Of a DNA stretch of 20,000 nt, positions 2 through 20,000 are shown one piece after another. Position 1 is the stretch's first letter. Each line of letters opens with the position of its first letter. This DNA comes from an uncultured virus (IMG/VR IMGVR_UViG_3300028591_000185) (taxonomy: Duplodnaviria; Heunggongvirae; Uroviricota; Caudoviricetes). A model generated the notes under the pieces. It was not told where the DNA came from and did no database searches. It saw only the letters and a program-made list of their open reading frames with translations. The stretch lies in the IMG/VR virus record IMGVR_UViG_3300028591_000185; one strand, written 5' to 3'. A program made the translations under genes and the position numbers.

Positions 2-1891
2 GGCCGCATTGGTGAGGCGTCCAGCGTTATGACTAAACGATATGCTCTTGATTATATTATGTCTGATATGGCAAAACGTAATCATTTGGAAAATCGTATT
101 TATATTCATGATTTAGATGCCTATGCAGTTGGTATGCATAATTGCTTATCTATTCCATTTGATAAATTATTAGCAGAAGGATTTAATACTCGTCAAACCG
201 ATGTGCGACCAGCGGGTTCCATTAATACTGCATTCCAGCTTGTCGCTGTGATTTTCTAGCTTCAAAGCTTACAACAATTTGGCGGTGTCAGTGCTACACA
301 TTTAGATTGGACTATGGTACCATATGTTCGGAAATCATTTTATAAACATTTTAGAGATGGTATTCATTATGTAGAACAAAAAATTTATGATTGTACACCA
401 CCAGAAGGAATGGAAGTAAAAGATATTCCAATTGATAGTGAATTTTATACAGATGCAGGATGTCCAATGGCATATGATTATGCTATGGATATGACAGAGC
501 GAGAAATTCATCAAGCTGTTGAAGGTATGTATCATAACTTAAATACACTTCAATCGCGTTCTGGCAATCAACTTCCATTTACCTCAATTAATTATGGTAC
601 TTGTACTCTATTAGAAGGTAGAATGGTTACTCAAGCTCTTTTAGAAGTATCTATTGAAGGTTTAGGCCGCATCCATAAAACATCTATTTTCCCTTGTGGA
701 ATTTTTCAAATGATGAAAGGAGTTAATCGTGAACCAGGAGACCCTAATTACGACCTTTATCAACTTGCTTTAGCAAGTACAGCCAAACGATTGTACCCTA
801 ACTATGCTAATGTTGACTGGTCAGGAAATGCAGGTTACGATAGAAGTGACCCCAAAACCTACTTCTCAACAATGGGATGTCGTACTGTCAACGGTGCCGA
901 TATTAACGCAGACCCAGGGGTTAATCCCTAGACTAAAGATGGTCGTGGAAATATCTGTCCAGTAACTATTATTCTTCCTACTCTTGCTATGGAAGCAACA
1001 GAATCTACATTACTCGGTAAGGCAGGAGAGTTTAGTTTTTATGACGATTCTGAAACAAGAATTAATAAATTTCTTGAATTATTAGACAAAGCTATTCACG
1101 ATGCTAAAGATATGTTGATTGAGCGTTTTGAATGGATTTGCGGGCAATCCGCTGAATCGGCTAAATTTATGTATGAGAATGGCACAATGAGTGGCTACAA
1201 ACCAGAAGAAGGAATTAGAAGTGCGCTTAAACATGGTACACTCGTAATTGGCCAATTAGGTCTTGCTGAAGCTCTTCAAATTCTAATTGGTTGCGACCAT
1301 ACCGAACCAAAAGGAATGGAATTAGCTAAACAAATTGAGGCATTATTTAAGACTCGTTGTGCAGAATTTAAACAAGCAGAGCATTTGAATTTTGGTGTAT
1401 ATTACACTCCCGCAGAAAATTTATGTTATACTGCTATGAAGAAGTTCCGTGAAAAATATGGTATTATTAAGAATGTATCAGATCACGAGTTCTTCACTAA
1501 CTCAATGCATGTACCAGTATGGAAAGAATTGAGCCCATTTGATAAAATTGATATTGAAAGTCAGCTTACTGGTTATTCTAATGCTGGATGTATTACCTAT
1601 GTTGAGCTTCCTTCTACTGTAATGAATAATCTTACAGCATTAGAACAAATTGTAAATTATGCTATGGATAAAGATATTCCTTATTTCGCAGTTAATGTTC
1701 CTAATGACACTTGCCTTGATTGTGGCTATACTGGCGAGTTTAATGATAAGTGTCCTCAATGTGGCAGTACGCATATTCAACAGTTACGCCGTGTAACTGG
1801 ATACCTTACTGGTAATTATAAAACTGCTTTTAATCTTGGCAAATAGGCCGAAGTTGAAGAGCGAGTAAAACATGTAGGAAAATTAGAATGA
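2..1891 (+). CDS. nrdD: Anaerobic (class III) ribonucleoside-triphosphate reductase; 5' end lies outside the window; 3 in-frame TAG read as Gln
   Basis: Track ORFs 29-259, 314-931 and 989-1846 are one frame broken only by TAG (257, 929, 1844). The linkers translate to RNR-like sequence (VIF*LQSLQQFGGVSATHLDW; NP*TKDGRGNICPVT; GK*AEVEERVKH). Motifs: HNCL, MGCRT, Zn site CLDC..CPQC, glycyl-radical loop RRVTGYL. Ends TGA 1889-1891. Confidence 0.97.
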
Positions 1892-2373
1892 GATATGCAG
1901 GAATGATTAAAAATGATGTTGCGGCAGCTCCTGGTGTTTGTGTAACTTTTTACACCCAGGGCTGTCCACATCATTGTCTTGGATGCCACAATCCAGAGAC
2001 TTGGGATTTTAATGGCGGTAAAGAATTTACCCCAGCAACATTATAGGAAATTAAAGAAGCCCTAATAGCTAATGGTATTCATCGTGATTTTTGTATTATG
2101 GGCGGCGAGCCACTATGTCGTGAAAATTTATTTTTAGTATGGGATTTAATTCAAGAAATTCATAGTTTTGATCCAACAATTAAAATCACAATATGGACAG
2201 GCTACACCTATGAAGAATTACTTGACAGAAATGAAAAAATATTATAGAATATATTAGAAAGTATAGATACATTGGTTGATGGGCCATTTATATTAAAACA
2301 ACGTGATATTACCCTTCCAATGCGAGGGTCCCGCAACCAAAGAATTATTGAGTTAAAGGAGAAAAATAAATGA
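1888..2373 (+). CDS. nrdG: Anaerobic RNR activating protein (radical SAM), 161 aa; 2 in-frame TAG; absent from ORF track
   Basis: ATGA overlap with the nrdD stop. MRYAGMIKNDVAAAPGVCVTFYTQGCPHHCLGCHNPETWDF carries CxxxCxxC, followed by GGEPL, WTGYTYEEL, LVDGPF and RGSRNQRII. TAG at 2044 and 2245; stop TGA 2371-2373. Confidence 0.96.
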
Positions 2374-2729
2374 TTATTACAGTTTGTGGTAGTAGCCGTT
2401 TTAAGAAAGAAATTCAACAAGTTGCACATGACCTTGCCATTCAAGGTAATACTGTATTGGCTCCTACTGTATTTCATCATATGGAAGAAGAAGAGCTGCC
2501 AACAGAGGTATTAATCCAATTAGATAATAGTCATAAAGAAAAAATTGAATTATCTGATGCTATTTTTGTTGTGAATGTAAATAAGTATATTGGCGAAAGT
2601 ACTTATGGTGAAATTGATTGGGCGCAACGAAAAAAGAAACAAATTTATTTCCTCGTTCCAATGGAAGAAGAAAAGACAGAAGAATCTACTCCTGTTGAAT
2701 CTGTTGAAGAGCCACCCAAGGAGGATTAA
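2370..2729 (+). CDS. Small protein of probable nucleoside 2-deoxyribosyltransferase-like fold, with acidic C-terminal tail
   Basis: AAGGAG RBS and ATGA overlap with nrdG. The pattern IITVCGS...VLAP...H..KIELSDAIFVVN...YIGESTYGEIDWA...KQIYF matches the NDT-like alpha/beta layout with a conserved helix Glu. Confidence 0.65.
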   Translation: MIITVCGSSRFKKEIQQVAHDLAIQGNTVLAPTVFHHMEEEELPTEVLIQLDNSHKEKIELSDAIFVVNVNKYIGESTYGEIDWAQRKKKQIYFLVPMEEEKTEESTPVESVEEPPKED

Positions 2730-2732
2730 TTT

Positions 2733-3254
2733 ATGAGAATTTATCTGGCTGGACCTATTTTCTATTATGGAGATTATCTTCGTAATATTGAATGGGCGAC
2801 TAAAATTCGTGAAAAATTCCCTGATGTATATCTCTATTCTCCAGTAGAGAATACTGATATAAATGGTGTTGAAGGTAAGAAGAAATTTGGAGGCTCATAG
2901 GAGATTGCAAATGGAGATAATATTAGATTAGATAATACTGATATACTCATTGCTTGCATTGATGGTGATGTATTACCCAGCGGGACTTGTGCCGAAATCG
3001 GCAAGTTCCACGAGAAAATTATGCGAGGAGATAATAAGTATATTATTGGTATTTGCACAGATACTCGCCAGTGTTATCTTACCCACAGTGAGGCCAAGGA
3101 TATTGGCGGTGCTGCTAGTCTTGGCGAGCAGTAGTATTCTTATCAAAACTTATATGTTACCGGTCTTATCAAACAGGCAGGTGTCCTTGTGAGCAATATT
3201 GATGAAGTGATTGAAGAATTAGAGCGGGTATATGAACGATACGATAATCTTTGA
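2733..3254 (+). CDS. Nucleoside 2-deoxyribosyltransferase / (d)NMP N-glycosidase family protein, 173 aa; 2 in-frame TAG; absent from ORF track
   Basis: GGAGG RBS. MRIYLAGPIF...YSPVENTDIN...EIANGDNIRLDNTDILIACIDG..PSGTCAEIG...ICTDTRQ...GEQ*YSYQNLYVTGLIK. TAG at 2898 and 3132; stop TGA 3252-3254. Confidence 0.88.
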
Positions 3255-3459
3255 TATAGGATATTATCCAATTGGAGCATATGATATAGATGATTTACAA
3301 GGCATTTGCGAATATTATGAAAAAGTAAGCCATCATAAATTAGTCTTATTACCTGATGATATACATGTAGATACTAATGTCTCTGTGGTAGAACTTAAAA
3401 AGATTTAGAATATGCTCACAAAAATAATTAAGGAAAGAAATAACAATAATGATTTATAA
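3232..3459 (+). CDS. Hypothetical protein, 75 aa; 1 in-frame TAG
   Basis: MNDTIIFDIGYYPIGAYDIDDLQGICEYYEK...KKI*NMLTKIIKERNNNDL. It fills the gap and overlaps both neighbours only if TAG 3406 is read through; ends TAA. Confidence 0.65.
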
Positions 3460-4702
3460 TATTAATGATAGATTACCTTTTGGCAAATTATTGATGTTTG
3501 CTATTTAGTTAGTACTTTCAGTATTCGTAGCAACAGTTCTTATCGCAAATATTTGCGGAGTAGCTGTTAGCGGTGCTCTTGTAGGTGCTGGTTTAGCTAC
3601 TTTAGTATATTTGGTATTAACTAAATTTAAGTCCCCAATGTTTGTATCGAGTTCAGGTGCTTTTGTAGCACCTGTTATGGCGGCACTTGCGGCCGGCGGA
3701 TATACTGCTGTTGCTATTGGTGGTTTGGTAACTTGTATTATTTATACAGTATTTGGCTTAGTTTTTACAAAAGTACCAGTAGAGAAGATTTATAAAGTAT
3801 TTCCTCCTGCGCTTATTGGAGCTGTAACTGTAGTAATTGGTGTTAATTTGATGCCCTTTATTCTTTCTTATGTTTAGATTGCTGGCGTTACTAATATGTG
3901 GGGTGTTAGTGTAGCATTAGTTACTATGTTAAGTATTGCTATCATTTCACATTATGCTAAAGGCATCTGGCGCATTTTACCTTTCTTAATGGGTACACTA
4001 ATTGGTTATGTATATGCGATTATTTTAACTATTAGCGGCGCATACCAAATTGTAGATTTTAGTGTTTTTGCCAACTTAAAATTATTTAACGTTCCAGACT
4101 TCGCTTTTCTACATTGGACTTCCGTCTCGTTTACAACAGTTCTTCCAGTGATAGTAATTTATATTGCGTATACAATTTCGGCAATGATGGAATGTTTAAG
4201 TGATCATGCTGCATTAGGAGGTATTATTGGAGTTGACTTATATAGAGAACCAGGATTAGGACGACTCTTTATGGGAGAAGGAGTCGCTAACATCGTCGGC
4301 ACTTCCGTAGGTGGCTTAGGTATCTGTTCATACGGGGAGGGCGTTGCATGCGTCGGATTTTCAAAAGTAGCTGCTACAAGAGTTACTGCGACAGCAGCAG
4401 GAATCCTTCTTCTCTTAGGATTTTTGGCCCCTGTCCAAGCCTTTATCCAATCCATCCCAAGTTGCGTATTTGCAGGAGCCGCGATTATTCTCTACGGTTT
4501 TATAGCATGTAGCGGAATTAAAATGCTTCAACGAACAGACTTAAATGTTCAGAAAAATTTAATTATTGTATCTACTGTTCTTTCTCTTGGCATTAGTGGT
4601 TTAGTAGTAGGTGGTACAACAATTAGTTTATCTGCTACTGGTTTAGCACTTGTGGTTGGGGTAATTCTTAATCTCTTATTAAAGGAGAAGGCTAATGGTT
4701 GA
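3449..4702 (+). CDS. NCS2/NAT family nucleobase:cation symporter (UraA/xanthine-uracil permease-like), 417 aa; 2 in-frame TAG
   Basis: Fuses ORFs 3611-3877 and 3896-4702 with an upstream segment MIYNINDRLPFGKLLMFAI*LVLSVFVATVL. Many hydrophobic helices plus SSSGAF, FPPALIGAV, SYGEG, IPSCV..G...ILYGFIA and NLIIVS motifs. TAG at 3506 and 3875. Confidence 0.92.
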
Positions 4703-5099
4703 TGTTATTTATGTATATGCTGACCCATATGATGATATGGTTCATTTGACTAAAAAAGAATTACAAGAATTATTAGATAGGGCATTTAAGCAAGGACATA
4801 ATTAGGGATATGCAGAAGGTCGGAATTTTTATAATTCTCCATATATTACTACAACCCCTGCAATTACATATAAACAAGAACCCGGATATAATCCTTATAC
4901 TATTACTTGTACTCATACTGGTGATGCTGTAACAATTCCTTATACAAATACTTGTACAGGACTATGTGATGCTACAGCGGAAACAGCTAGTACTAAAAGT
5001 AGTTTTAGTACTTATACTACTAGTTGTATTGATTCTATTATATTTACCAATTCAGAAGCTGAAGCTAATTATGGAATTGATACTAATATGAATAATTAA
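4695..5099 (+). CDS. Hypothetical protein, 134 aa, Thr/Tyr-rich C-terminal half; 1 in-frame TAG; absent from ORF track
   Basis: AAGGAG RBS at 4682-4687; ATG overlaps the permease end. ELQELLDRAFKQGHN*GYAEG with TAG at 4803; TAA 5097-5099 lies just before the terminator. Confidence 0.75.
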
Positions 5100-5108
5100 T
5101 AAAAATAA

Positions 5109-5150
5109 AAAAAATGGCGATTACCAATTTTTTGGTAATCGCCATTTTTT
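5109..5150. terminator. Bidirectional intrinsic terminator between convergent modules
   Basis: Perfect inverted repeat AAAAAATGGCGATTACCAA-TTTT-TTGGTAATCGCCATTTTTT, with A/T tracts on both sides and stop codons converging on it. Confidence 0.93.
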
Positions 5151-5159
5151 ATTTATATA

Positions 5160-6326
5160 TTATTTAACACGTATCCAAATACGTCCATTTACTTTTACAT
5201 TATCGCTACCCCATTCTTCATATTCAGGAATTTCACTTACAATTCCTATAATACAATCAGGATAATCCCTAATTTCTTCTCTGGTCATAATATCAACAGT
5301 ACCACCAGGAGCAGAGCAAACTGCCATCCCGGCATGATAATTATTACGATTTTGATATGGATATACTAATACACGACCTGCAACTGCAACAGGAGTTTGT
5401 GCGGTTGGGGTTGCGCCCATACAATGACCATATGTATCAGAAATTACTTGGGCTCCTGGCTATAAGCGGTCAGAAGAACAAACTAATGAACCATCATCTT
5501 GATCTATTACGACACAGCCTGGGATAAGGTCTACTGTTGTGCGGAATTCGGCATAGTCATTAAAGACAGCATTATATACACGCATTGCGCTCAAATTTTT
5601 AGCAAAATAAGCGCCACCAGAACACTATAAAGCATTATTATTATAAGTAGTTGTATCTGGTTTTTCTGCCGCTCCTGTATAACCAGCTGTACTTGTAATT
5701 ATAAAAGGACCAGAAGAACTTAAACCAGAATTTCCTAATGTTAAATTAGTAATATACGCATTATTGACTGGATAAGAAGCACTCCCTAAATTTTTAATAT
5801 AAGCTGTATGCCATCTTTTGGTACCAGAACCAATATTCCATTCTCCACCATTGGTATCAACCGCATCTTTACTAGGTAGCAAATGTCCATCAACAGTAGT
5901 TGTACCGCCTAATGAAATTTCACCGGCATCACCAGCTAATCCTTTAATAGGAATTTCATATCTATTTCCATCTATATCTACTCGAAATGTACCAGTAGGC
6001 TATTCGCTATATTTATCTGTTATGGGATCTTTTATTAATGGGGTTAATGGCTATTCAACTCCATCAATAATTTCACCAGGGAATACAATATCACTACCAA
6101 CTCCAATAATAGTAGAACTACCATCACCTTTATATAAACGTATATGTTTAGGTCCGCTTCCACTCTACCAAGTTTCCCCTTGCGCATCAGTTGGGCCGAT
6201 TGCATATGTATAAGTAGCAGCCGCTACAGCCTATAAACCAGCTTTACTAATTACATATTGCTATGTACTCGCAGGAGCAGGTGATAAATTAGTGCTTCCA
6301 TCTCTTGTAAAATTTATATCTGCCAT
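5160..6326 (-). CDS. Tail spike/appendage-like protein with C-terminal peptidase G2-like intramolecular chaperone, 388 aa; 7 in-frame TAG
   Basis: GAAAGGAG RBS, ATG at 6326. One frame joins track ORFs 5625-5882 and 5160-5420, with TAG at 6261, 6231, 6165, 6051, 6000, 5625 and 5460. The C-terminus VYNAVFNDYAEFR...ISDTYG..MG....PVAVAGRVLV...IIGIVS resembles autocleaving chaperone domains. Confidence 0.75.
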
Positions 6327-6369
6327 AAAGGATATATCTCCTTTCTCTCATTATAAAAACTTTTTCTAC

Positions 6370-6415
6370 ATACAATGTAAAAAAAGATTAAACTTTCTTA
6401 ATCATTATAGCCCAA
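6370..6415 (-). promoter_or_regulatory. Candidate phage promoter motif TTGGRC-N26-TTTTTAYATTSTAT, copy 1
   Basis: Intergenic, downstream of a terminator and ~45 nt upstream of ATG 6326. A second copy with identical spacing lies at 17491-17536. Confidence 0.5.
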
Positions 6416-6430
6416 AAGAAGATATAAAGA

Positions 6431-6457
6431 AAAGGGAAGAGTTTAACTCTTCCCTTT
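6431..6457 (-). terminator. Intrinsic terminator-like hairpin after the 6462-7079 gene
   Basis: AAAGGGAAGAG-TTTAA-CTCTTCCCTTT, a perfect 11-bp stem flanked by T-rich tracts on both strands, 4 nt after the TAA reached only by TAG read-through. Confidence 0.8.
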
Positions 6458-6461
6458 ATTT

Positions 6462-7079
6462 TTATACATCAACCCAATAGAGGCCAGCATTTTGTGCATC
6501 AATATATTGCTACATTAATTGCACATAATTAGTATCGCTTGTTAATAATGTAGCATCAATCGCATTGTAATCATGTTGCGCACCATGTATATGGGCCCAA
6601 CCTGTTAATACTTTACTTGATGCTGTTAAAGTATTAATTTCATAAAAAAGCTCTGGTGCTTCATCACTTGAAGTAGGAGCAATTTTAAAGAATTTAATAG
6701 AAAAACGAATTGTACCACTCCATTTAGTTACTGGGCTTTGAATATTCCAAGGAAAAATAATTTTTCCACTTACTGATGTAGTGTCGTAATAAGGGATAAC
6801 ATAATAGTATTCTTTATTTTTCGCATCACGGAATTGAATCATACCAACCATTTGAGCTAAATCCATAGAGTCATAATATCTATCAATAGAAAAGAATATG
6901 ATTTCTGCGGAATGGTCGGCTTCTACGCCTAAAAATGTAGGAGCATTAATTTTTCTAGTATTTAAATCTACCTCATAGATAGGTTCATCTTGAGGAAGAC
7001 GAATTCGAATGTCAGGAGGATTATACCCATCCTAAACGTTTTTTAAGAATTGCAGATATTCTTGTTCACCAGTAATCAT
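6462..7079 (-). CDS. Putative baseplate upper protein (BppU N-terminal-like) domain protein, 205 aa; 2 in-frame TAG
   Basis: GGAGG RBS and ATG at 7079 (MITGEQEYLQFLKNV*DGYNPP...). TAG at 7032 and 6510; ends ...QLM*QYIDAQNAGLYWVDV TAA. Motif DHSAEIIFFSIDRYYDSMDL...WNI...T.WSGTIRFSIKF. Confidence 0.7.
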
Positions 7080-7105
7080 AGGGAATACCTCCTATCCTTA
7101 AAAAA

Positions 7106-9127
7106 TTAGATTACGCAACGGAATAAATCGGTATATCCAATACGTCTGGTATTATTATATTCAGCTACTGTTTTAATACGATAATATCCGTTATCAGCAG
7201 GCATAAATGATTCTGCCATAGAGATTTCAATTTCTGCTGGGTCAGCCTCTTCAACTAACTCTAATGTATTCTCATCTACTTCTTGTAAGTAATACTTTAA
7301 TACACAACCGGAGAAATCAGCATATGGGAGATTATCATCAACCATTGTAAAGGCTAATGCTTGACCTAAATCTACTTGGAGAATACTATCGTTTTCACCA
7401 GTACGAGCACCGCTGTCTAATACTTTTACTGTTCCCTGTTGGCCATCAAGTGCGACATAAACACTAATTTGATTTACAGAAGGAGCAACAAATGAAGTAG
7501 TAATACTGTCAGATTCGCCTTTTGCATATGTTGCATTAAGACGATTAATAACACCAACTTTATATTGGCCTTGAGTAGTTAAACCATTAGATACTGGGAT
7601 TTCTCCTTCATAACGAGCAAAATCATATTCACCAGCAGCAATATCTTCATCAGTTAAATCAGCAAATACGGTCTCACTGCCAACAATTTTACCTTCATTA
7701 TCTAACATCACTACAGCAAGAGCACCTAAATCATCACCGCTTACAGAAGCAGTAATAGTTGGCGCACTCTCAGGCGCACTCTCATTAGAAATATAAATGA
7801 AAGCATTTTGTTCTGGGTCAATAACTTCATAAGAAGCTGGGTCAAGATTTGAAGAAACACTTAAAGTGACTTCTGGCTCAGATGCAGCAGGAACTAAACA
7901 ATAACCAGCATTATTATCAGCACCATCGCGATTAGATGAAATACTCTTTGTTAAAGCCTCAACTTGAGCCTTATCTTCATCAGATAACCCATTCCAAGTA
8001 CCATCACTAATATCAACACGAGCATTAGCTTGTACTGAATATCTACCAGCTTTATTAATAGCAAGAACGCTAAATAACTCATAAATTGGTTCGGCATCTT
8101 CTTCACCAAGAGCAGCAAAAGCATCATCTTTCTCATCACCAACCAATAAAGCATAACCACCAGTTACGGCTTTATAGTATAACTTATTGGCAGCAGGAGT
8201 GGTATCTTCAGTCTCACGATAGGTATCTACACCTACTACTGGAGTAGCTTCTTCGCCTTCAAGTGTGGCCATCCAAGTATATTGAATACTTACGCCCTTT
8301 GTAATACCAGCTTGAGCGGGCAAGTATAAAGTAGATTGAGTATCACCAGCCTCAAATGGCATATTAATTTTGGCAGGCAAGTCTAAAATCCATTCAGGCA
8401 TATCTGGCCCTTCAATTTCATCTACACGATATGAGCTATTGCGTAAACGAAGAGCGAGTTCACTTAAATAATTATTATCTACTAATACTGGGTCTTTTAA
8501 TGTTAAGCTTGTACCAACTTGAATAGTTGCAGGAATTGTGTTAAAGCTATAATCAATTTCACCATTAGCAACATGATAGAACTGAATAGAGAATGTTAAT
8601 GTTCCAGCAGCTTGAGTCATTTCCTTTTTAATTGGCCATCCAAATACCAAATAGCCAGGAATTAAATCATCGGCAGGACCAAATGCAGCTGTTGTTTGCA
8701 TATCACCAATGGCCTTAGAACCAGCAGGAGTAAATGCCCAGTTAATAACAACACGACCATTTCCATCGTCATTTAATAATTTATAAAAGCTTTGATAATC
8801 AAAGTATTTATCAATTTTAAAATATACTGTTTCTGCCCAATGGTCACCAATAACAGCAATGCCATTTTTCTTAAAGACCTGTGGAACTGTGATTACACGG
8901 CTATTGGCATCAATTTCAAACACTGGTTCATCAGCTGCCATGGCTAAGCAACGAGCGGTATATTCAGGATTTGCAGTAACGAACTCAAGAATGGTTTGAA
9001 TATTAGCAAAATACTCTTCCAAAGACTTGATTTCAAGGCTTAATCCCTTTTTTGCAAAGGCTGCATTCATTAACTCAAAACGAGCTTGATATATCTCATT
9101 GTTTTCAGCAGTTAATTTTGTAATCAT
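7106..9127 (-). CDS. Putative virion/baseplate protein, 673 aa, with N-terminal BppU-like domain followed by acidic beta-rich (Ig-like?) segments; no TAG
   Basis: Intact ORF with AAAGGAAG RBS. The segment DHWAETVYFKIDKYFD...WPI...T.AAGTLTFSIQF parallels the downstream gene. Confidence 0.7.
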   Translation of the reverse strand: MITKLTAENNEIYQARFELMNAAFAKKGLSLEIKSLEEYFANIQTILEFVTANPEYTARCLAMAADEPVFEIDANSRVITVPQVFKKNGIAVIGDHWAETVYFKIDKYFDYQSFYKLLNDDGNGRVVINWAFTPAGSKAIGDMQTTAAFGPADDLIPGYLVFGWPIKKEMTQAAGTLTFSIQFYHVANGEIDYSFNTIPATIQVGTSLTLKDPVLVDNNYLSELALRLRNSSYRVDEIEGPDMPEWILDLPAKINMPFEAGDTQSTLYLPAQAGITKGVSIQYTWMATLEGEEATPVVGVDTYRETEDTTPAANKLYYKAVTGGYALLVGDEKDDAFAALGEEDAEPIYELFSVLAINKAGRYSVQANARVDISDGTWNGLSDEDKAQVEALTKSISSNRDGADNNAGYCLVPAASEPEVTLSVSSNLDPASYEVIDPEQNAFIYISNESAPESAPTITASVSGDDLGALAVVMLDNEGKIVGSETVFADLTDEDIAAGEYDFARYEGEIPVSNGLTTQGQYKVGVINRLNATYAKGESDSITTSFVAPSVNQISVYVALDGQQGTVKVLDSGARTGENDSILQVDLGQALAFTMVDDNLPYADFSGCVLKYYLQEVDENTLELVEEADPAEIEISMAESFMPADNGYYRIKTVAEYNNTRRIGYTDLFRCVI

Positions 9128-9160
9128 AAACCTTATATCTTCCTTTCTTATAAAATAGGG

Positions 9161-9191
9161 AGGAGAGGAAGAAGTAAATTCTTCCTCTCCT
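9161..9191. terminator. Strong intergenic hairpin (terminator or mRNA-stability element)
   Basis: AGGAGAGGAAGAA-GTAAA-TTCTTCCTCTCCT, a 13-bp perfect stem. The U-tract on the coding (-) strand is weak (CCCTATTTT). Confidence 0.55.
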
Positions 9192-9217
9192 TATTTATTA
9201 AAAAATATTTAATAAAA

Positions 9218-9424
9218 TTATTGAATATTGACCTCTTGCCATTCTGCAAGTTCGTCTTCTGGAATTACTATTTGAGAGATAAAAGATTTATTATCTTTCG
9301 TAAGCACTTTACCAGGGTCAGCTGTAAGTTTAAAATTTCTTACATAATAAATATCTTCTAAATGAATAGGAGAAATAATTACTCCATTAGTTCCAAGATA
9401 TTTATATAACACTTGTTTAGTCAT
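9218..9424 (-). CDS. Hypothetical 68-aa protein downstream of the giant tail-associated gene
   Basis: AAAGGAG RBS, intact ORF, TAA stop, fills the gap between neighbours. Confidence 0.8.
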   Translation of the reverse strand: MTKQVLYKYLGTNGVIISPIHLEDIYYVRNFKLTADPGKVLTKDNKSFISQIVIPEDELAEWQEVNIQ

Positions 9425-9444
9425 AATTGTATTCTCCTTTATTT

Positions 9445-12400
9445 TTAATCACCATGGTACACAATTGTACCATTATAATAATGGTCTTTATTCTGCTCAT
9501 CTTTAAAGATGATAGTATTTGCATTAGCCCCATTATATACAGTAAATGTTTTTGGCATTGCTTGATATGAGTTAGTTAAGAAACCAAACATATCAGCTAC
9601 TGTAGATTTAATTTCATTAGAAGTGTCATATATATTATCATCACCTGCATAGTTGCTTGAATAGAAATCAATATCGCCATATTCTGCACTGTTATTACCA
9701 GCAAAATAATAAGCAACACGATTAGGTCTTGCTGAAGGAGCAGGCGTTGGTATCAGTAATTCTGATGGAACAGAAGGACTGCCAATTTGTAAACCAATCT
9801 TAAATGGACTACTAGACCAATCTTGATAAGCAAATGAAGTCCAGCCAAAAGTAATTACGCTACCAGGAATATGAATTACATTCAATGAAGCAGGACGATT
9901 ATTAGCACTAAACGCCTGATTGAAAGCATTATTTCTAATCATAATTAATACTGAATTATCATTACCAATTGATTCTACTAAACTTAAATTCTTAACATTA
10001 GTAAATGCATTAGTACCAATAATACGTAACTTAGGTAGACCTAAGAAGTCTACATATTTAAGATTAGTCATTGCTTTACAACAATCTGCCGCAATTTCAC
10101 GAATTTCATTATTAGCTTCAAAGAAAATATGAGTAATTTCTGTCTAACTATAAAAATCACTAATTGCTATAACAGGCTGATTATTCATGCTCTTTGGAAC
10201 AACAACTTTACCACTAATCATTTTTTCACTGGCAGGAATTAAGCGAATTGTTAAACCACTAGTATTATATAAGCTATCAGCTCCTGCAACATAATATGAA
10301 GAATTAGGATCGGAACTTTCACGATATTCAGTGGCATCATTTACAATTTCAAAATATGAACTATAATCTACATCATAAATGCTTGCTTCTTCGAATACAG
10401 CATAAAACTCACGGTCGCGTTGAGACTTGCCTACATTATTATGTGTCCAAGCTTCGGCAGTACCGCCTTGTCTAAATGCCCAACCAGTCCAATGATAAGT
10501 TTGTGTTAATGGTAAATTAGATTCGTTTTTACTTGGAACTACATTTACTGCATAATCTGTAATAAATGACTCAGCGGGAACATATACAACTGCTACAACA
10601 TCATTATTACCGTCATAATAAGTCATCTTATACTTATGTACATAATACACAGCATAAAATACATAATCATTTTGACCAGCAGTAGGAGTTTGAGAAGCCC
10701 AATTATTATACTGTTGATCGGCAGCAATAATATTTGTATTTGAAGTAGTTTTAATTAAATGTCCTTTAGATTCTAAATACCATTCTTCATCGTCAAATGC
10801 ACTTACAGCTGCAGGACTTAAAGCTTCAGTACTCCAGCCATAGAAGTCATATTGAGAACGAGTATCATAATTATCTAATAATGTTTGTGAAATTAATGTT
10901 GAAGGATCTGGGAAGAAATCATCATTCTCACCTAAACTACGTCTTGCTAATAAATCATATGTTCCATCATCATTTAAAATAACATATTTAGCACTAGGTA
11001 CTTTATTTACGTTTCTAAAGAAGAATTTTACATCTGGATAAGCAAAACTCAAATTAGTTTCAATATCCTTTTCATTAACTGCAACAGCATTATCTACAAA
11101 AATAGTACCAGTAATAATAGGAATTGCATTATCTTCTGATGCTGTGCTAAAGAACTTATCATTTGTCTTTAAGTTTTCTAACAATGTAGTATCAGAAATT
11201 GTAGAAGACTACAATGCCATTGTTGTATCTAACTTATATAATTCTTCATTTTGAATTGCTAAATTCCAACTCTCTGCTGAATAATTAGTATAAGGGATAA
11301 ATGAATAGTGGCCATCATCTAACCAATATAAATTATTATTAGCATCTTCGGCACTATATTCGGCACCTTTTGTTAATTTCTTATAAGGACTCCAATCTAC
11401 ACCAGTAATAGTAATGTAAGAAGCACTTGCGCCACTTCTGGCAGCATAATAGTTTTCTAATAATTTATAACTATCATATCCAAGATAATCACCTATTAAA
11501 TTAATAGTTGAAATTTCGGATGTAGCATCTTGAGGAGTAACTGCATCTGTTAAACCTGGGATATATAAGCCTTCTTTTACATCGACTCCGCGTGTATCAT
11601 CTCTTACCCTAAATTCAGTTACGATATTCTTTAACTATGTAGCCTCAGTTAAATTCAATGCACGAATTGAAGCAGGTAAGTATAAAGTTCTTAATGCAAC
11701 GCCATCAGCGAATGTAACGTTTGTAATATTAGAACCAATAGCACGGAAATCAGATAATTTTTCACAACTGCTAAAATTAAATGTAGGTGCGGCATCATTA
11801 AATGTGATATAAGATAAATTAGCCTTCTTTAAAAGTGGCATACCACCTTTATCACTAGCAGAATTACTTGCACGCAAACTGTACATATTAACATTATTAT
11901 GATGATAATGACACTCATCTTCATTAGTTAAATCATAGTTTTCATCTACACCATCGTATCCTAATAACAAATCAGTCATCTTCGCTGCGTTTGTTTGGAA
12001 TTCAAGCTCAGTCCAATATAATTTACTCATATCACCCAAGCTCTTCATCTGGTCAATACCATAAATATAGAACAATTGCTCAGCATATCCACCACTTGAA
12101 CGAATACCATTTTCAAGGTCAGTAGCAATAAAATGTACAGGACCATTCAAATTAGTATATTTTTGTGATGGGAAGTTAGCAGCATCAGTACCAACAGTAA
12201 CATAAGAGTTACGTACTGGTTCCATATCAACCCAATATTCACCATCAAACATATGGGTTTTAATTGTTTCTGCGGCATCCTGCCAATAAGGTTCATTGGT
12301 AATTAGGTTTGCCTCAGTATTTTTATTTGTACCTTCAATCCACTTATCTGATTGCACAGAAGGTTTATTAGCAGAAATACGACCACGAATGACGTTATTT

Positions 12401-15400
12401 CCACCACGCTCATATTGTCCTTGATTTAACCAAGAATCAATATAATTTAAACGATTAATTAAGAACTGTTGACGTGATAAGCTTCTATTACCTTGTAACA
12501 TATAGAAATAAGTACCATTATCATAACTAGTTGTGCCATAGCGGTCTTGATAACCACCACCGGTTCTAGTGTTAGTAATAGTAATATATTTGTAATATTC
12601 ATCTAAGTTCAAAGCAATTAATGGACGCTCACCGCGCATAGCTAAGCTCTTGCACTCAACTGGGTCTGCTAAGTACCATTTTTCAATACGGTCAATAGAC
12701 TGTAATGGAGGAGTTGATAATGCATCATAAGTTGATGATGTACCTCTTAACTGTCTATATTTCTGAATAATAGCACCTTTAAAGTTACGATACAAGTTAT
12801 TATATAATACACTATCATTGGTAGAGAATGTACCATCTTCAGTAGCATCTACATAATATTCAAATGATGGAATACCAGTATTATTAATACCTAACTGTGT
12901 ATCAATATCATAGAAAATTGGATACCAGATATATTCACCACCTGCGGTTTGAGGACCCCAAGATGCCATCATCATATTCTTTCCACGAGAATCGTAACAT
13001 TCAAACACTTCTGTCATTACAAAATATGTTACCAAATACTCTAAATTAAAATGCTTTGTTAAGTCATTTACAAACTTAGCATTACGATATTCTTTGGTAT
13101 CATAATTATAAGTAATACCATTATATACAACAGGCTCTGCTAATTGAGTAGCACCACTATGCTCTTCATCTTTATCTAAGTAATAATATTCAATATCAGC
13201 ATTAAATGTGCCATCAGGGTCTAAGACATAGTCGCCTAAACCAGAATCTACATAGAATTTATTTGCCGCATATAATAAATCACTAGAAGCACAAAGCTTA
13301 ATTACGGTTGTACCTGTGCTGTTGGAATAATATGTTTTTTCAGCATCATACTCATTGGAGCTATCTAAAACATATGTTAATTCATTACCAGAAGTATCTG
13401 CAATATAATATGTATTTGCAGCATAAACTGCAGTACCTACATCAGCTAAACGATAAACACCAGCAGAAGGTACGCTATCTTGGTCAGTGCTCCATACCCA
13501 CCGAACTGCCTTTTCCCAATTCTTATAAATATTTAACATAGCTGCTCCGGCATCTACCATACCTTGAGTATATATGCCATTATATTTATCATCGGGTGAA
13601 GTTGCAGCATTTGGATTTGAAATATCTACGCCACATTCATCAAGTACAGTTGCAATTGAATCTTCATCATTAAGCTTTTCATTTAACTCATAGAGAATAT
13701 CTAATGAATCAGCTTTATCATGATAACGATACTCCCAATAGTCAGCAACTACTGGAGCACCTTTAGCTGTTAACTTATCTGTTTCAAAGAATCTATCATC
13801 ATCAGCTGCTCTATTAGTGGCTGCATCACGGAATGAACAGAAACCACGTGAGTTGTTTTCGCCTTCCCAGCACTCAGCAACTTTGCTAATTTTAGTAGGC
13901 GCACCCTTCTTTGTAATGAATTTTTGATATACATTGTCCATCTTGAAACCATAAGCTTCATCTGAACCTTTGTCTAATAACATATTATAACGACCAATAT
14001 AAACAGGAGCACCGATTGGAGCACCAGTTTCATCAGTCTTCTAATGGAATGTTAATACAGGAAAACCTTGTACAGATGTACGTAAATCATTAAGTTTAAT
14101 ATCTGATAATCCAATATCATTATATACTGTGACAGCTTCATACCAGTTATTATCATTAGCATTTACTTTACTCTGCCCAATAGAAGTACCATATGCATAA
14201 GGACCCATTGCAAAACATGCCGCTGGATCTGCCTCATCATGAATAGTTTTTAATTCATCATCGGTAGTATTCTTAAAGTTACCTTTATGATTTTTATACC
14301 AATATGTTTTATTATTATCATAAGTTGCACTACTTAAATCAATTACGCTATAATCGGTACTTGCAGATTGGAAAGCTCCTGCTTTAATGTAATCATAATA
14401 TGGATGATGTGAATAAGCGTTCTTTACTAAGTTAGCAAAGCCCATATTATAAGTACCAGAAGATTCCATGTAATCAATCTTTAAGGTAAATTTAGTAGTA
14501 CCTACTGTATCATTATCCATATAGAACCAGTCTAAATGTGTTGAAGGTTTATCTTCAACATATTGTTGAGCAAATGGTCCACGGTTCATATACATTTGTA
14601 CTTTTTTAGTTTTAGTCTCATCTGCTGGATCAAAATTCTTAGTTTTGGCTTTATAGTTTCTACGAGGATAGAACTCAGAAGAAGTACCTTGAATCTTTAA
14701 TTCAATATGTTCACCTTTCCAAGATGGACAATGGTGCATATAATATTCTTCTACAGTTTGACCTGCACGCTCAGCTAATTCATTTAATTCACCAGTTACA
14801 TAAGCTCTATCCAAACCAGTATTTACAAACTCCATTTGGACATCTGTAATTGGAATTTGTTTACTATATGGTAATACATTGCCTTGTGTTGGATTTGTAG
14901 TTAAAATCAAGTAAGGCATAATATATCCATCAGGATGCTCATTATTGTAATTTACCATATTTTCATATACAAATTGAGACTCATTTAAGCTATTGTTTAA
15001 TACGGCCAATTGACTTAAATCATAACCTACTGGATCTTTTAAGTCTACCATATAGTTAGTAACAATACTTGATAATGTTAATCCCTGATTATATATACGA
15101 ATCTTATATAAATCAAAATCGCAATATTGTGAATCAAAAACGATATTTAACGCATTAGATTCACCAATATTCCAAGAGCCATTTAATGTTGAAGTAGCAA
15201 CACCTGTTAACATACCATTTAAATAAATGGACATTAACTTATTTGTATCTGTATATACAACAGTTAAATTAATTAACTTATCTTCTACATATGCAACGTT
15301 AACTGTATCAACACCATTAGTAAATAAAGCATCTTGCGCACCAATGCAAATACCATGAATACCATCATAATACTTACCAGAAGCATAGTTAGTATTTAAA

Positions 15401-17412
15401 ATCTTTTCTACTTTTCTGAACTCTAAGTCATCATATGAAGGAGGGAATATTTGTTGATTTGGATCTAAGAGTTCAGGATTATGTGCTGCATATTCTGGTA
15501 AATACCATTGTAAGAAAGCATCATAGTTATCATAGGTACGTCCATTACTCCACTCTAAATAAGTGCGGTCCATATATGCTTGATATACACTTGGATCACC
15601 ATTATAACTAAAATCATCAGTCCAGTTACCAAATGTTCTACCATGGCTAGCTTCTGTATTAGCACGATAACGAGTTACATTATGAATAATTTGACTATAA
15701 TCTTGTACATTACGAACTTTAAACTAAAATTCAAATGTATGAGATTGATTGCTTGCGTTAGTAGTAGCAAATTTAGTTTGTCCAAGAGGAATAGTAAATT
15801 TAGCGCCATTACTAATTCTTAAGCAACTATTACCATCACTATCAATTACCCAGCCATTATTATACCAGTTAAAGTTTTCAAGTTGTGCATCAATAACAGT
15901 ATCACCATTGTTATATGCACACTTAATACGGCTGGCCGCAGCTTCACTATTACTACGTCCACTTGCATTAAATACATAACGTAAACCAGCTTCAGTAATT
16001 TTCATGCCAGTACGATTTGGGTCTTCTGAAACTAAGAAGCTAATTTCTTTACGCACTTCATTTTCTTCTGAACCACAAGCAATTGTATAATAGTTTTGAT
16101 AGTTTAAGTCTGCATCAACAATTTCCCAAATAGAGAAATTATCATTATCAGTAATAATTCTTGTACCAGTTTTTACACCATCTTTAAATAATGTAATTGT
16201 TGCACCTAAAGTAGCATTAGGGTCATAGACACGGAATGGGATTTTAATAGAATCGTACTGATAATATTCTTCATTATACTTGCCTAACCAAATAATTGGT
16301 AAATCACTATTAGGATCTACAACAGCAATTTCCATTTCAATTGGAGTAGCAGAAGATGTAAAATCAGTTTTACCATTAATATATTGATATAATTCAATAC
16401 GTACTTTATGTGCCCCATGTGTTGCTAATACTTCAGGAACATGATAACTTTGCTCATTAGTTCCTGCAGGAACTACTGTACCACCTGGATTTAATAACTC
16501 CATAATACCATTAGAATCTTCAAAATAATAATAAATAATTTTTTGTAAATTACCAATAGTACTACAATAAATAGTTACTCCACTTGGTGTATAAGTGTTT
16601 ACATTATTAAAGTTTGTATGCGCTAATAGCTGTAAATCTGAAGTAAAGAATGTATATGTAATTTCTCGACTATCAGTACTTGCGCTACCTTTTACATACA
16701 TTGTTAATAAGTTCTCTGTGGAATGACGAGCTTTAGTACCATATTCAAAGGCTTCCCAAATAGGAGCTTCTTCAGTTGAAGCATCAATAGGGAAATTTCC
16801 CTAAGCATATACAGTATATAAACCAGTATCTTCTTTTTCTGCTAAAGTCCAGTAAACAGTTAATTTTTGGTCTAATATAGAACCATCATAATCTTTACCA
16901 GAAATTGCAAAAATATTAATAGATGCTTCTTTACCATTAATTAAATAATTAGATTCAGGATCTTGCTTATTTAATTTAGCTCTATCAGAATAAGTGATGA
17001 TTGTACCACCACCGCCACCACCAGAGCCACTTACTGCTAATAAAATGGCTTGTATAGTTTTAGCATTATTATCCACTTCTGTTATTCTAAAAAATCTGCC
17101 ATCGGAATTTAGAATAAGAGTATCAGGATGAGGTACTACACTAGAATCATCTAAAATAGAAAATGACATAGAGTATAAAAAGCTATGCTCATTATCTGGT
17201 TCAACTTTAATTATAGTTGCATCTGTACCATGACCATATACAATACCAGTTGAGTTTCCGCCCATTAAATATCTACGTTCATTTTTATCTAAATAGATAT
17301 TACCAGTGTCATAAGCAAAATATACAAATCCTTCATGAGGGGTTTTATACTATTGGAAAATATCTGCCTATTTACCTCTAATTGGCTAAAATTTAAATTG
17401 ATTTTCTGCCAT
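9445..17412 (-). CDS. Giant 2655-aa multidomain virion-associated protein (LamG/lectin-like, CotH-kinase-like, LRR-like, Listeria-Bacteroides/B-repeat-like, BspA-type LRR); 9 in-frame TAG
   Basis: GAAAGGAG RBS, ATG at 17412. Six track ORFs share one frame. I read all the linkers and found only TAG (17386, 17368, 17350, 16801, 15724, 14041, 11635, 11209, 10144), with no TAA/TGA until 9445. Motifs: IYLNG...DLYKIRIYNQGL; IQGTSSEFYPRRNYK; YIGRYNMLLDK; DSRGKN; WYPIFYDIDTQLG; YDFYGW/YHWTGW...FYAV; IGTNAF/IRNNAF/IPGSV. Confidence 0.85.
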
Positions 17413-17446: not shown

Positions 17447-17477
17447 ATGGGGTAAGGAACCTATGTCCTTACCCCAT
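17447..17477 (-). terminator. Intrinsic terminator-like hairpin in the leader of the giant gene
   Basis: ATGGGGTAAGGA-N7-TCCTTACCCCAT, a perfect 12-bp stem followed on the - strand by TTTATTTTT. Confidence 0.75.
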
Positions 17478-17539: not shown

Positions 17540-19816
17540 TTAGAAAGTCCCCCAAACAATCTCAGCTTGAATTGTATCAGTGGTACTGGTTGGTTGAGTC
17601 AGTGTTAATGATTCAGATTGTAACTTAATTGTAGAAGTAGAAGCATTAGAACTGGCAGAATCAGTATCGCTCATATTGAGTGTTACTGTTGCTGTAGTTA
17701 CTCCACTTGCTGTTGCAACACCAACAGTAGTTGGACGTAACTGGAAGTAAGTATCCTCATCTGCTGGTAAAGTAATACTTTGCTCAGAAATCTCAGTTAC
17801 ATGGCCTTGTGCATTAACTTTAATATTTGGAACCTTAATAGTGCCACCTGCGGCAGGTGTTATACTGGCAGAAGTACCATAAGTAGTACCAGCTGTACCA
17901 GAACTTAATAAATCACTATGTGAAATGGCTAAACGGTTACTATTATCTTTATCAACAGCAATAGAAGTACCATCACCCACTACTATTGCAGTAGAGCTAC
18001 TATTACCACCAATTTCAGATAATTTAATTGATACAACACCACTGGTTTTATCTACACCGATTTCATAAGTTGTATCATCAGAATCGGGTAATGTGATTGA
18101 AGTTTCACTTAATGCAGTTACGTGACCACGGTCATTAACTGTAATTTGAGGGATCTTAAATGATTGACCATAACCAGGTGTAGTATTACTATTACTACCT
18201 TGAGCAGTTGATGGTAAACCACTAATAGTATCATGATTTAAAGTAATGGTTGAACCATTGACACCAGCTGTAATATCTGTTCCACCAACAATAACAGCTA
18301 CGGTTTCACTGCCATTACCAGGATCTGGTACAGCAGAAATAGTAGCAGCATGTGTTGTAGCATTTTCACTTACAGTAAATGTATACTGTGTATCTGTATC
18401 ATCACCAGCTGGAACAAGTGTCCAGGTTAAATCACTAGTAATAACATTATTAGTTTCTGTTCCAGAAGCAATGAATAAGTCACCAGCATCAGCTTCTTGA
18501 TTTGCATATGTGCCAGCAGCTTTTACCATATAGGTATCGCCGACTTTAACATCAGAGCTTGGTAAGGAAGCAACTGTACCACCAGTACCAACGGTGCCCT
18601 TATAAGTCATTGCATTTAAGCCAGCAATTAATTCATCAACCTTACTTGCAGAATAGAAAGTACCTAAATCTTGTTGATTATACTTAGTTTGAGCGGTACC
18701 ATCAACTGTTAATGTATGATACAATACTCCAGAAGCAGTTTTACTAGATGTGCCATTATTATTATCTTTAATAGTAAAGCTTAAATCACCACTATTATTT
18801 GCACTAATTGCATCTGCTGTATAAGTAGTATCTAATACTGTAATATCTTTTGTAGCAACTGCGGTTACATGGCCTTGGTCATTAGAAGTAACAGAATCTA
18901 CTACAGTAAATGTAGCAGTATTGCCAGACATAGATTCTGCAGTAGCAGTAGTATCAGTACGTGTTACATTAGCATGTGAATACTCAATATTGCTGGCAGT
19001 TGCACCAGATACAGAAAGAGCAGTACCAGCAGTAAAGTTGATAGATGTAGAATCTGTCTGTGAACCATTTACTTTTTCTACGAATGTTAAACCAGCAGTT
19101 CCGGCAGGTGAAGATAATTCATATGTACTATCATCAGCACTGATTGTAATAGCGGAACCATTACCACCAGTAATATTAACATTAGTACCACCTGTAAGAG
19201 TTACACCAGTACCATTTGTTTTAGCCCCATTACCACTTGTGTTTACAGTAACACTATCATTTGCTGCAGCAGTAGAAGTTAAATCTACTTCAACATCAGT
19301 GGTAATACTAGCTAAATCATTTCCATTAATTACAAAAGTTGGTTGTAAAGCAGATAAAGGATCTTCACTATTATCAGCATTTACATGAGCTCTTGTTAAT
19401 GAAGCAGTATAAGTAATAGTATTATTAGTGCTATCAACTACTCCATTACTGATAGTAAAAGTTTTAATAGTATCATAACCACCATCAGTATCTGGATTTA
19501 CTTGTACCCATTTTTTAGTAGCACCATCTTGCACTACAACGGCTAAGATGTTACCATTATGAGTATTATCAGCACTACCACTACCAGCTCCTTCTACATA
19601 ATAGAACTGACCAACTTCAACAGTATTAATAGCTGGTAATGCATCAATACTAGCAACAGTAGTAATAGATTTATTTAACTCGACTAAGTCATTTCCTTGA
19701 CCGACATACAATCTATGAGTATCATCGGTTAAATAAAACGCACCATCAATAACCGCACTAGTACCAGTTGCTGGCAGATTCGCATGGTGGCCACGCTTAA
19801 ATAAAACATTTGCCAT
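17540..19816 (-). CDS. Tail fibre-like Thr/Ser/Gly-rich structural protein, 758 aa; no TAG
   Basis: GGAGG RBS. N-terminal FKRG...LP...DGAFYLTDDTHRLYVG, internal YKGTV...LP...GDTY motif, three H...GHVT repeats, ends EIVWGTF. Confidence 0.75.
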   Translation of the reverse strand: MANVLFKRGHHANLPATGTSAVIDGAFYLTDDTHRLYVGQGNDLVELNKSITTVASIDALPAINTVEVGQFYYVEGAGSGSADNTHNGNILAVVVQDGATKKWVQVNPDTDGGYDTIKTFTISNGVVDSTNNTITYTASLTRAHVNADNSEDPLSALQPTFVINGNDLASITTDVEVDLTSTAAANDSVTVNTSGNGAKTNGTGVTLTGGTNVNITGGNGSAITISADDSTYELSSPAGTAGLTFVEKVNGSQTDSTSINFTAGTALSVSGATASNIEYSHANVTRTDTTATAESMSGNTATFTVVDSVTSNDQGHVTAVATKDITVLDTTYTADAISANNSGDLSFTIKDNNNGTSSKTASGVLYHTLTVDGTAQTKYNQQDLGTFYSASKVDELIAGLNAMTYKGTVGTGGTVASLPSSDVKVGDTYMVKAAGTYANQEADAGDLFIASGTETNNVITSDLTWTLVPAGDDTDTQYTFTVSENATTHAATISAVPDPGNGSETVAVIVGGTDITAGVNGSTITLNHDTISGLPSTAQGSNSNTTPGYGQSFKIPQITVNDRGHVTALSETSITLPDSDDTTYEIGVDKTSGVVSIKLSEIGGNSSSTAIVVGDGTSIAVDKDNSNRLAISHSDLLSSGTAGTTYGTSASITPAAGGTIKVPNIKVNAQGHVTEISEQSITLPADEDTYFQLRPTTVGVATASGVTTATVTLNMSDTDSASSNASTSTIKLQSESLTLTQPTSTTDTIQAEIVWGTF
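17750..18980 (-). repeat. Three diverged protein-level repeats (H...[NS]x[QR]GHVT....IT) within the 758-aa protein; boundaries approximate
   Basis: SHANVT...VTSNDQGHVTAVATKDIT; NHDTIS...FKIPQITVNDRGHVTALSETSITLPDSDDT; SHSDLL...IKVPNIKVNAQGHVTEISEQSITLPADEDT. Confidence 0.8.
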
Positions 19817-19832
19817 ATATTATTTCCTCCAA

Positions 19833-20000
19833 TTATGAATTTTCAATAGGCTTCCAAATTAAACGATCTGCAAGTACATTAAGTTCATCTACAATAGTAC
19901 TATTTGCAGAACTACGATTAGTTAAATCAGATAGATTTCCAACTGTAGTTTTTAATACATAATTACTTGGATCAAAATCGCTAATACTAGAAACAGAAAT
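19833..20000 (-). CDS. C-terminal 55 aa of an upstream gene (partial), probably structural
   Basis: Open frame ISVSSISDFDPSNYVLKTTVGNLSDL...IVDELNVLADRLIWKPIENS with TAA at 19833-19835, abutting the RBS of the next gene. Confidence 0.7.
   Translation of the reverse strand: MSVSSISDFDPSNYVLKTTVGNLSDLTNRSSANSTIVDELNVLADRLIWKPIENS

Follow-up and report, generated by a model that had tools for sequence, protein, structure and literature searches.

A ruminant-gut phage fragment in which TAG is very probably a glutamine codon

Introduction

What does a TAG triplet mean to the phage whose genes it interrupts? The question is raised by a 20,000-nucleotide stretch of an uncultured Caudoviricetes virus (IMG/VR record IMGVR_UViG_3300028591_000185), the whole of which was analyzed here and is called the window. 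When the window is read with the bacterial code (code 11), it contains 24 open reading frames (ORFs) of at least 80 amino acids, many of which are short and lie next to one another in a single frame. With TAG taken as a sense codon, the same DNA resolves into 11 closely packed gene models and the 3′ end of a twelfth gene, including a giant gene of 2,655 codons. A preliminary description of the window, made from its letters and a list of ORFs, had proposed that TAG is reassigned to glutamine throughout. We reach the same answer with high confidence. The window is very probably a fragment of a large double-stranded DNA phage of the ruminant gut in which TAG would be a glutamine codon (NCBI translation table 15, here code 15) and termination would use only TAA and TGA.

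Stop-codon recoding of this kind was reportedly first described by Ivanova et al. in 2014. In gut phages, Borges et al. (10.1101/2021.08.26.457843) describe eight recoded clades, four of them using codes 11, 15 and 4, with in-frame stops in 26-71% of genes. The recoded stops are used heavily in structural and lysis genes and variably in replication genes, and a model is offered in which suppressor transfer RNAs (tRNAs) decode them. For crAss-like phages, Peters et al. (PMC9523058) report that code 15 was validated by metaproteomics. The phage phAss-1 group (OQ749652.1, 135,976 bp; PMC10607447) is described as a gut phage with in-frame TAGs. Published work thus already covers recoding, suppressor tRNAs and clades with mixed codes, as the preliminary description had recognized for TAG-to-glutamine recoding in gut phages (Lak, some crAss-like and some Firmicute phages), and the window leaves the current picture unchanged.

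Results

All interruptions in the gene models of the window are TAGs. There are 28 of them in eight genes, 10 on the plus strand and 18 on the minus strand, making up 28 of the 205 glutamine-type codons, and no gene model contains an in-frame TAA or TGA. The 12 gene ends in the window consist of eight TAA and four TGA, with no TAG. In the giant gene, nine TAGs and no other stops occur in a frame of 2,655 codons. Elsewhere in the window, TAA and TGA together account for about 3-8% of the triplets in each frame. This pattern of interruption by TAG only is far beyond chance.

The layout of the genes shows that their structure makes sense solely with TAG as a sense codon. Coding density was estimated with a greedy measure of ORF coverage, applied to the window under alternative codes. 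Code 11 gave a density of 0.806 (20 ORFs, median length 206 amino acids), and reading TAG as sense raised this to 0.958 (12 ORFs, median length 389 amino acids), compared with 0.824 when TGA was read as sense (code 4) and 0.880 when TAA was. All 10 complete genes begin with an ATG preceded by a Shine-Dalgarno-like motif of the AGGA or GGAGG type. Strong terminator-like hairpins follow code-15 stops at four places (Table 1), and Pfam domains match the read-through products of the anaerobic ribonucleotide reductase gene nrdD, its activase gene nrdG and a permease gene over their full length. TAGs are present both in the genes of nucleotide metabolism (nrdD, nrdG, a nucleoside 2-deoxyribosyltransferase-like (NDT) gene and the permease gene) and in the tail module.

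Most of what the preliminary description had said about the gene layout holds. Genes break only at TAG, read-through yields full-length proteins, no gene ends in TAG, stops adjoin terminators, and the coordinates bear out the ATGA-type overlaps at 1888-1891 and 2370-2373. The comparison of coding density across codes that it had proposed also came out in favor of TAG as sense. Its count of 29 TAGs in nine genes (11 on the plus strand and 18 on the minus strand) agrees with ours on the minus strand only. The extra plus-strand TAG and the ninth gene were not found, the sole other candidate in the window being an 82-amino-acid ORF with a TTG start (3211-3459) that contains two TAGs and overlaps the end of the NDT gene. 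The statement that standard annotation misses genes is correct for code 11, a code that breaks the giant gene into six pieces and loses nrdG and the NDT gene. It does not extend to the public protein collection, where a gene caller had already produced full-length versions of two of the proteins. One of these, a permease of 417 amino acids (P0121), is 100% identical to the window permease over its full length. The other, an NrdD of 754 amino acids (P0001), is 100% identical to the window NrdD and has Q at the TAG sites. The contig from which these database proteins come is 32,931 bases long.

Comparison with homologues shows that the residue TAG would encode is glutamine. Homologue searches were made with X at the TAG sites of the query, so the query could not bias the answer. 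The most direct evidence comes from the DNA codons of related viral loci. At NrdD site 86, 77 of 78 loci have CAA or CAG and one has TAG. At site 310, where 29 loci have gaps, CAA or CAG is found in 45 of the 52 ungapped loci, TAG in two and other codons in five. At site 615, CAA or CAG is found in 74 of 78 loci and ATT or ATC in four. The NDT and permease genes each have a counterpart in locus L071, where both NDT sites face CAG (90% identity) and both permease sites face CAA. In the giant gene, sites 563 and 1124 are CAA, CAG or TAG in all seven of the closest relatives (57-71% identity), and site 204 is CAA in five of the seven. Sites 15, 1926, 2068 and 2423 of the giant gene are mostly E, K, D or N in its relatives.

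Protein comparisons gave the same result. Among the listed database homologues, Q occupies the three NrdD sites in 119 of 119, 119 of 119 and 112 of 119 sequences, and both permease sites in 119 of 119. The sequence contexts that the preliminary description had picked out in nrdD are present, IFxLQS at TAG 257 and GKxAE at TAG 1844. Alignment to three solved structures confirms a further detail, namely that TAG 3506 (permease codon 20) falls on the Q of the QH motif of E. coli UraA ('slqh').

A column-score test extended the comparison to every TAG site with data, 22 of the 28. For each candidate residue, the mean BLOSUM62 score against the homologue column was calculated and summed over sites. 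Q scored 45.4, followed by E at 21.1, K at 15.8 and R at 8.0, and all hydrophobic residues were negative. In a control with the 20 ordinary amino acids, the test returned the true residue each time. The tabulation of homologue columns suggested in the preliminary description placed glutamine first overall and made it the top residue at 10 of the 22 sites. In the reciprocal test, the 419 in-frame TAGs of relatives were opposite Q in the window 110 times and opposite a window TAG 24 times, and the next commonest residue was T (44 of 419). The in-frame TGAs of relatives were opposite W in 6 of 14 cases. The proposal of glutamine is therefore supported by homologue columns, by the DNA codons of relatives, by the UraA structures and by the column scores.

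A suppressor tRNA of another identity could instead make TAG a codon for glutamate, lysine, leucine, tyrosine, tryptophan or pyrrolysine. Some sites point in such directions. Site 15 of the giant gene is GAA or GAG in 16 of 22 relatives, K scores highest at giant-gene site 1124 and at both nrdG sites, and N scores highest at giant-gene site 2423 and at site 190 of the tail-module gene g205. The program ARAGORN labels tRNAs with a CUA anticodon 'Pyl', which it does by default. However, the partner of TAG is glutamine in every strongly conserved TAG column, the summed scores favor Q well over E and K and are negative for L, Y and W, and TAG interchanges with CAA and CAG both between close relatives and between strains. 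We consider it very unlikely that TAG specifies a residue other than glutamine.

It is also conceivable that the code is not specific to the phage, either because the sequence is cellular or because the host itself reads TAG as glutamine. Contigs that carry homologues of the permease and of NrdD reach 423 kb and 343 kb, respectively. The nearest structural relatives of the window, however, are viral contigs of 139-176 kb, some of which have terminal repeats, with tRNA sets of their own that include tRNA(CUA). A viral origin is also indicated by the relatives in IMG/VR, by the match of the giant protein to phrog_14959 and by a tail-protein PHROG beside the homologous gene in locus L086. Relatives close to the window in its own clade read their genes with code 4 or code 11, which fits switching at the level of the phage and not a host code. 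In addition, no bacterium is known to us that reads TAG as glutamine. A cellular sequence or a recoded host is highly improbable on this evidence.

The window is not confined to one sample. Gut runs in which it occurs belong to 16 studies and cover sheep, goat and bovine samples. The sheep-gut runs X1-X3 contain 96-98% of its sampled words, and one sheep-gut run includes a 95,657-base record that overlaps it. Over long TAG-bearing pieces, the contigs of two sheep-gut runs, each from a different study, show zero differences from it; one of these runs is an RNA library, in which DNA may be present, and the source sample may be among the two. In the 40 differences listed, out of some 1,010, the TAG at 1844-1846 reads CAA in contigs of a goat run (depth 4.6/9.8) and a bovine run (13.8/13.8). 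Under code 15 this exchange of TAG and CAA between strains is synonymous. The idea that the TAGs are C-to-T sequencing or assembly errors at CAG, or that the window is a pseudogenized dead element that truly stops at TAG, has a negligible chance of being correct: TAG is one transition from CAG and code 11 still gives an ORF coverage of 0.81, but the frames are interrupted 28 times by TAG and never by TAA or TGA, the interrupted proteins are conserved over their whole length, the same TAG-bearing sequence is found in the two sheep-gut runs, and many relatives are alike, having as many as 45 TAGs in the giant gene and densities of 0.97-0.98 under code 15.

How would a phage read TAG as glutamine? 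We infer that the host uses the standard code and that the phage encodes an amber-suppressor tRNA(CUA), which would lie outside the window if present. Such a tRNA would be charged with glutamine by host enzymes and would compete at TAG with host release factor 1, whose role at this codon is textbook knowledge. Genes with TAGs would then be made in full only once tRNA(CUA) is present, and the TAGs may act as a brake on these genes, a role already suggested in the literature on recoded gut phages.

Related genomes are consistent with this mechanism. ARAGORN found tRNA(CUA) in all four of the TAG-recoded related records that are whole or nearly whole, with two copies in G001 and one each in G003, G004 and G005. 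The G004 tRNA lies at 137838-137912 (18438-18512 of locus L173, minus strand) and is 96% identical to the G003 tRNA at 160035-160109. The Rfam tRNA model missed both, and the G004 copy was found when ARAGORN was run on the whole genome. In G002, which is a fragment, there was no tRNA(CUA) in the 12.8 kb scanned. G004 carries TAGs in 67 of its 143 ORFs, 305 in total. In both complete genomes, G003 and G004, the tRNA(CUA) lies apart from the main tRNA cluster. When the suppressor tRNAs were compared with the other tRNAs of their genomes, none stood out as the nearest type (identities 0.63-0.71).

TAGs are not evenly distributed among the genes. In g673, g758 and g119, none of the 49 glutamine codons is TAG (P ~7e-4, post hoc), and in g388, TAG accounts for 7 of 13 glutamine-type codons. 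Conserved avoidance of TAG in g673 and g758 was considered and rejected, as their homologues in recoded relatives carry TAGs at 19 of 121 and 15 of 92 glutamine-type codons. Within genes, 11 of 25 TAGs fall in the first 60 codons, compared with 17 of 155 CAA and CAG codons (p = 2e-4, post hoc, nrdD excluded). Early TAGs include codons 9, 15 and 21 of the giant gene, and others lie near the starts of g388, g205 and the permease gene. A translation gate formed by TAGs clustered at 5′ ends was rejected as a property of the family, as 13 TAG-recoded relatives are unbiased (15 of 58 versus 239 of 790, p = 0.8). The support for a role of TAGs in the timing of late genes is mixed.

Several results weigh against glutamine as the meaning of TAG in this phage, or against the mechanism that would produce it. 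At 12 of the 22 sites with data, another residue (E, K, R, N, T, L or V/A) outscores Q. All 12 lie in variable columns of nrdG, the giant gene, g205 and g388 and say nothing for or against glutamine. Some database homologues may owe their Q to a TAG translated under code 15. For this reason the codon counts from DNA matter; they avoid the circularity for NrdD, and for the permease they come from two loci only. There is no tRNA in the window, and no release-factor domain or glutaminyl- or glutamyl-tRNA synthetase (GlnRS/GluRS) domain was found in five related records. A search for the host by way of the permease found no relative in 185,579 species genomes. A brake on late genes is weakly supported, given that nrdD, nrdG and the salvage genes contain TAGs as well, and there is no obvious reason for their absence from g119, g673 and g758.

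The giant gene allowed the codes of a wider family to be compared. Its relatives are found in loci L086-L116, L117-L130 and L001-L004. In 23 non-duplicate loci with a long homologue, ORF coverage indicates TAG as sense in 12, TGA as sense in four and the standard code in seven. A quick maximum-likelihood tree (2,276 columns, LG+G4, SH-aLRT support only, midpoint drawing) places the window as sister to L086, which is TAG-sense (support 100). Together they lie inside a clade of eight rows (support 100) composed of four TAG rows and a monophyletic group of four TGA rows, and the tree needs at least six code changes. One of the TGA-sense relatives, L090, carries a tRNA(UCA). A tentative and rather doubtful interpretation is that these phages form an undescribed clade of about 140-176 kb in the ruminant gut in which the reassigned stop itself has switched, with a TGA-reading subclade placed among TAG-reading lineages at 60-70% identity of a 2,600-residue tail protein. 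If true, a phage lineage that had settled on one alternative code would be able to change to a different one.

Shared ancestral TAG sites were tried as proof of a direct switch from code 15 to code 4 and rejected, as no pair of TAG-coded lineages shares such sites above chance. The window and its sister L086 have one TAG site in common (p = 0.57). Because TAG positions are hardly shared even between sister lineages, TAG and CAA/CAG turn over quickly, and the ancestral code is not readable from the TAG positions.

Phages of either recoded kind are common in the set of viral contigs to which the search with nrdD led. In several unrelated ones with a similar nrdD (loci L017, L018, L019, L027, L030, L037, L042 and L043), reading TGA as sense adds 0.09-0.17 to ORF coverage, and L029, L030 and L036 carry tRNA(UCA).

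The features of the window are listed in Table 1.

Table 1. Genes and terminator-like hairpins of the window, with genes read under code 15. TAG positions are those of the first base.
Feature	Coordinates	Strand	In-frame TAGs	Stop and boundaries	Matches and remarks
nrdD, anaerobic ribonucleotide reductase large subunit	2..1891	+	257, 929, 1844	TGA; 5′ end cut by window edge	Pfam NRDD 3.1e-145
nrdG, activating radical-SAM enzyme	1888..2373	+	2044, 2245	TGA; ATGA overlap with nrdD	Pfam Fer4_12 1.4e-36, Radical_SAM 7.2e-11
g119, 119-amino-acid protein, no assigned function	2370..2729	+	0	TAA	
NDT, nucleoside 2-deoxyribosyltransferase-like	2733..3254	+	2898, 3132	TGA	Pfam PF05014 (Nuc_deoxyrib_tr) 2.4e-10; phrog_1817 8.8e-22
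NCS2 nucleobase (uracil/xanthine) permease	3449..4702	+	3506, 3875	TGA	Pfam Xan_ur_permease 2.8e-47; UraA structures 1.2e-36
134-amino-acid protein, no assigned function	4695..5099	+	4803	TAA	No Pfam or PHROG match
Bidirectional terminator-like hairpin, 19 pairs	5109..5150	.			Between convergent plus- and minus-strand gene blocks
g388, 388-amino-acid probable tail-fibre tip protein	5160..6326	-	7: 6263, 6233, 6167, 6053, 6002, 5627, 5462	TAA	No Pfam, PHROG or PDB sequence match
g205, 205-amino-acid conserved putative tail-module protein	6462..7079	-	7034, 6512	TAA, then hairpin 6431-6457	Relatives in 20 metagenome loci, 33-60% identity
g673, 673-amino-acid putative tail-module protein	7106..9127	-	0	TAA	
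Giant putative tail-module protein, 2,655 amino acids	9445..17412	-	17388, 17370, 17352, 16803, 15726, 14043, 11637, 11211, 10146	TAA, then hairpin 9161-9191	phrog_14959 1.1e-59; full-length relatives 29-71% identity
g758, 758-amino-acid putative tail-module protein	17540..19816	-	0	TAA, then hairpin 17447-17477	GGAGG before ATG
3′ end (55 codons) of a further gene	19833..20000	-		TAA; runs off window	

The giant gene has full-length counterparts on contigs of 115-176 kb from metagenomes and IMG/VR, and so do its neighbors on IMG/VR contigs. Direct terminal repeats were found in three related records, and the relatives with terminal repeats are 162-176 kb long. The order g758, giant gene, g673, g205, g388 is kept in relatives, and in L086 an ORF upstream of the giant-gene homologue matches phrog_1887, 'tail protein' (9.4e-11). 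On the basis of this kept order and the tail-protein match, we infer that the minus-strand block is a tail or adsorption module. The plus-strand block would be a nucleotide-supply module. The window contains no capsid or terminase gene, and the PHROG matched by the giant protein, phrog_14959, is one of unknown function.

Other searches returned little. There was no near-identical DNA among 50,697 phage records, and a tblastn search of the same records with the giant protein yielded 28 matches, all weak and partial, with coverage of the query below 80% in every case. These matches had at most 27.5% identity and were mostly to Bacteroides phages of 34-47 kb. PDB sequence searches gave no matches for the giant protein, g388, g758 or g673, and an Rfam scan of the window gave none. 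No match to the end of the window was found in the viral collection.

The C-terminal part of g388 is 63% identical to the C-terminus of a 1,437-amino-acid ORF in L086 (21869-26179). Its last 190 or so residues also recur in several other relatives at 44-58% identity. This recurrence in the L086 ORF and in other relatives suggests that the g388 C-terminus may be an exchangeable tail-fibre tip domain.

The plus strand begins with a nucleotide-supply cluster (2-4702) of nrdD, nrdG, the NDT-like gene and the uracil/xanthine-type NCS2 permease. Identity to the permease is 84-97% in its 119 listed homologues. Since such close homologues exist and none was found in the species genomes, this phage group seems to carry a membrane nucleobase importer along with it. 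The small protein g119 has one relative, in L071, at 38% identity.

Discussion

The window adds a well-documented ruminant-gut lineage to the phages that read TAG as glutamine. In this lineage, codes 15, 4 and 11 occur within one structural-gene family, and recoding reaches the genes of nucleotide metabolism. Full-length NrdD and permease proteins were already available from a public gene caller, the former with Q at the TAG sites.

The recoded clades of Borges et al. are the closest parallel. They share with the window the use of TAG for glutamine in phages of the animal gut and the presence of TAGs in only part of the genes, structural genes using them heavily. Suppressor tRNAs (in the case of the window, those of its relatives) and the mixture of codes 11, 15 and 4 within a clade are further points in common. 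The Agate clade (154 ± 27 kb, from cattle) resembles the relatives of the window (139-176 kb, from the ruminant gut), a likeness of size and habitat only. The window differs from these clades in that its nucleotide-metabolism genes are recoded too.

The crAss-like phages of Peters et al. are reported to show the same reassignment of TAG to Q. Structural similarity to them was not found, a comparison that concerns the giant protein only, which has no good match among phage records. The window also differs from crAss-like phages in having Shine-Dalgarno-like motifs before all starts of complete genes. The gut phage phAss-1 has an nrdD whose product is 41% identical to the NrdD of the window, which is a distant relation, and it has no match to the giant tail-module protein.

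The closest named NrdD proteins belong to the Thomasclavelia phages TR-TP1 and TR-TP2 (PQ571309.1 and PQ571310.1), with 72% identity over 99% of the query. These phages have no DNA-level similarity to the window and no match to the giant gene. Unlike the window, they have an annotation that is continuous under the standard code, and coding density in the TR-TP1 locus (L005) is 0.858 with code 11 and 0.894 with code 15. Their nrdD (L005 11623-14746 in TR-TP1) is split by the insertion of an HNH endonuclease gene, whereas the nrdD of the window is uninterrupted.

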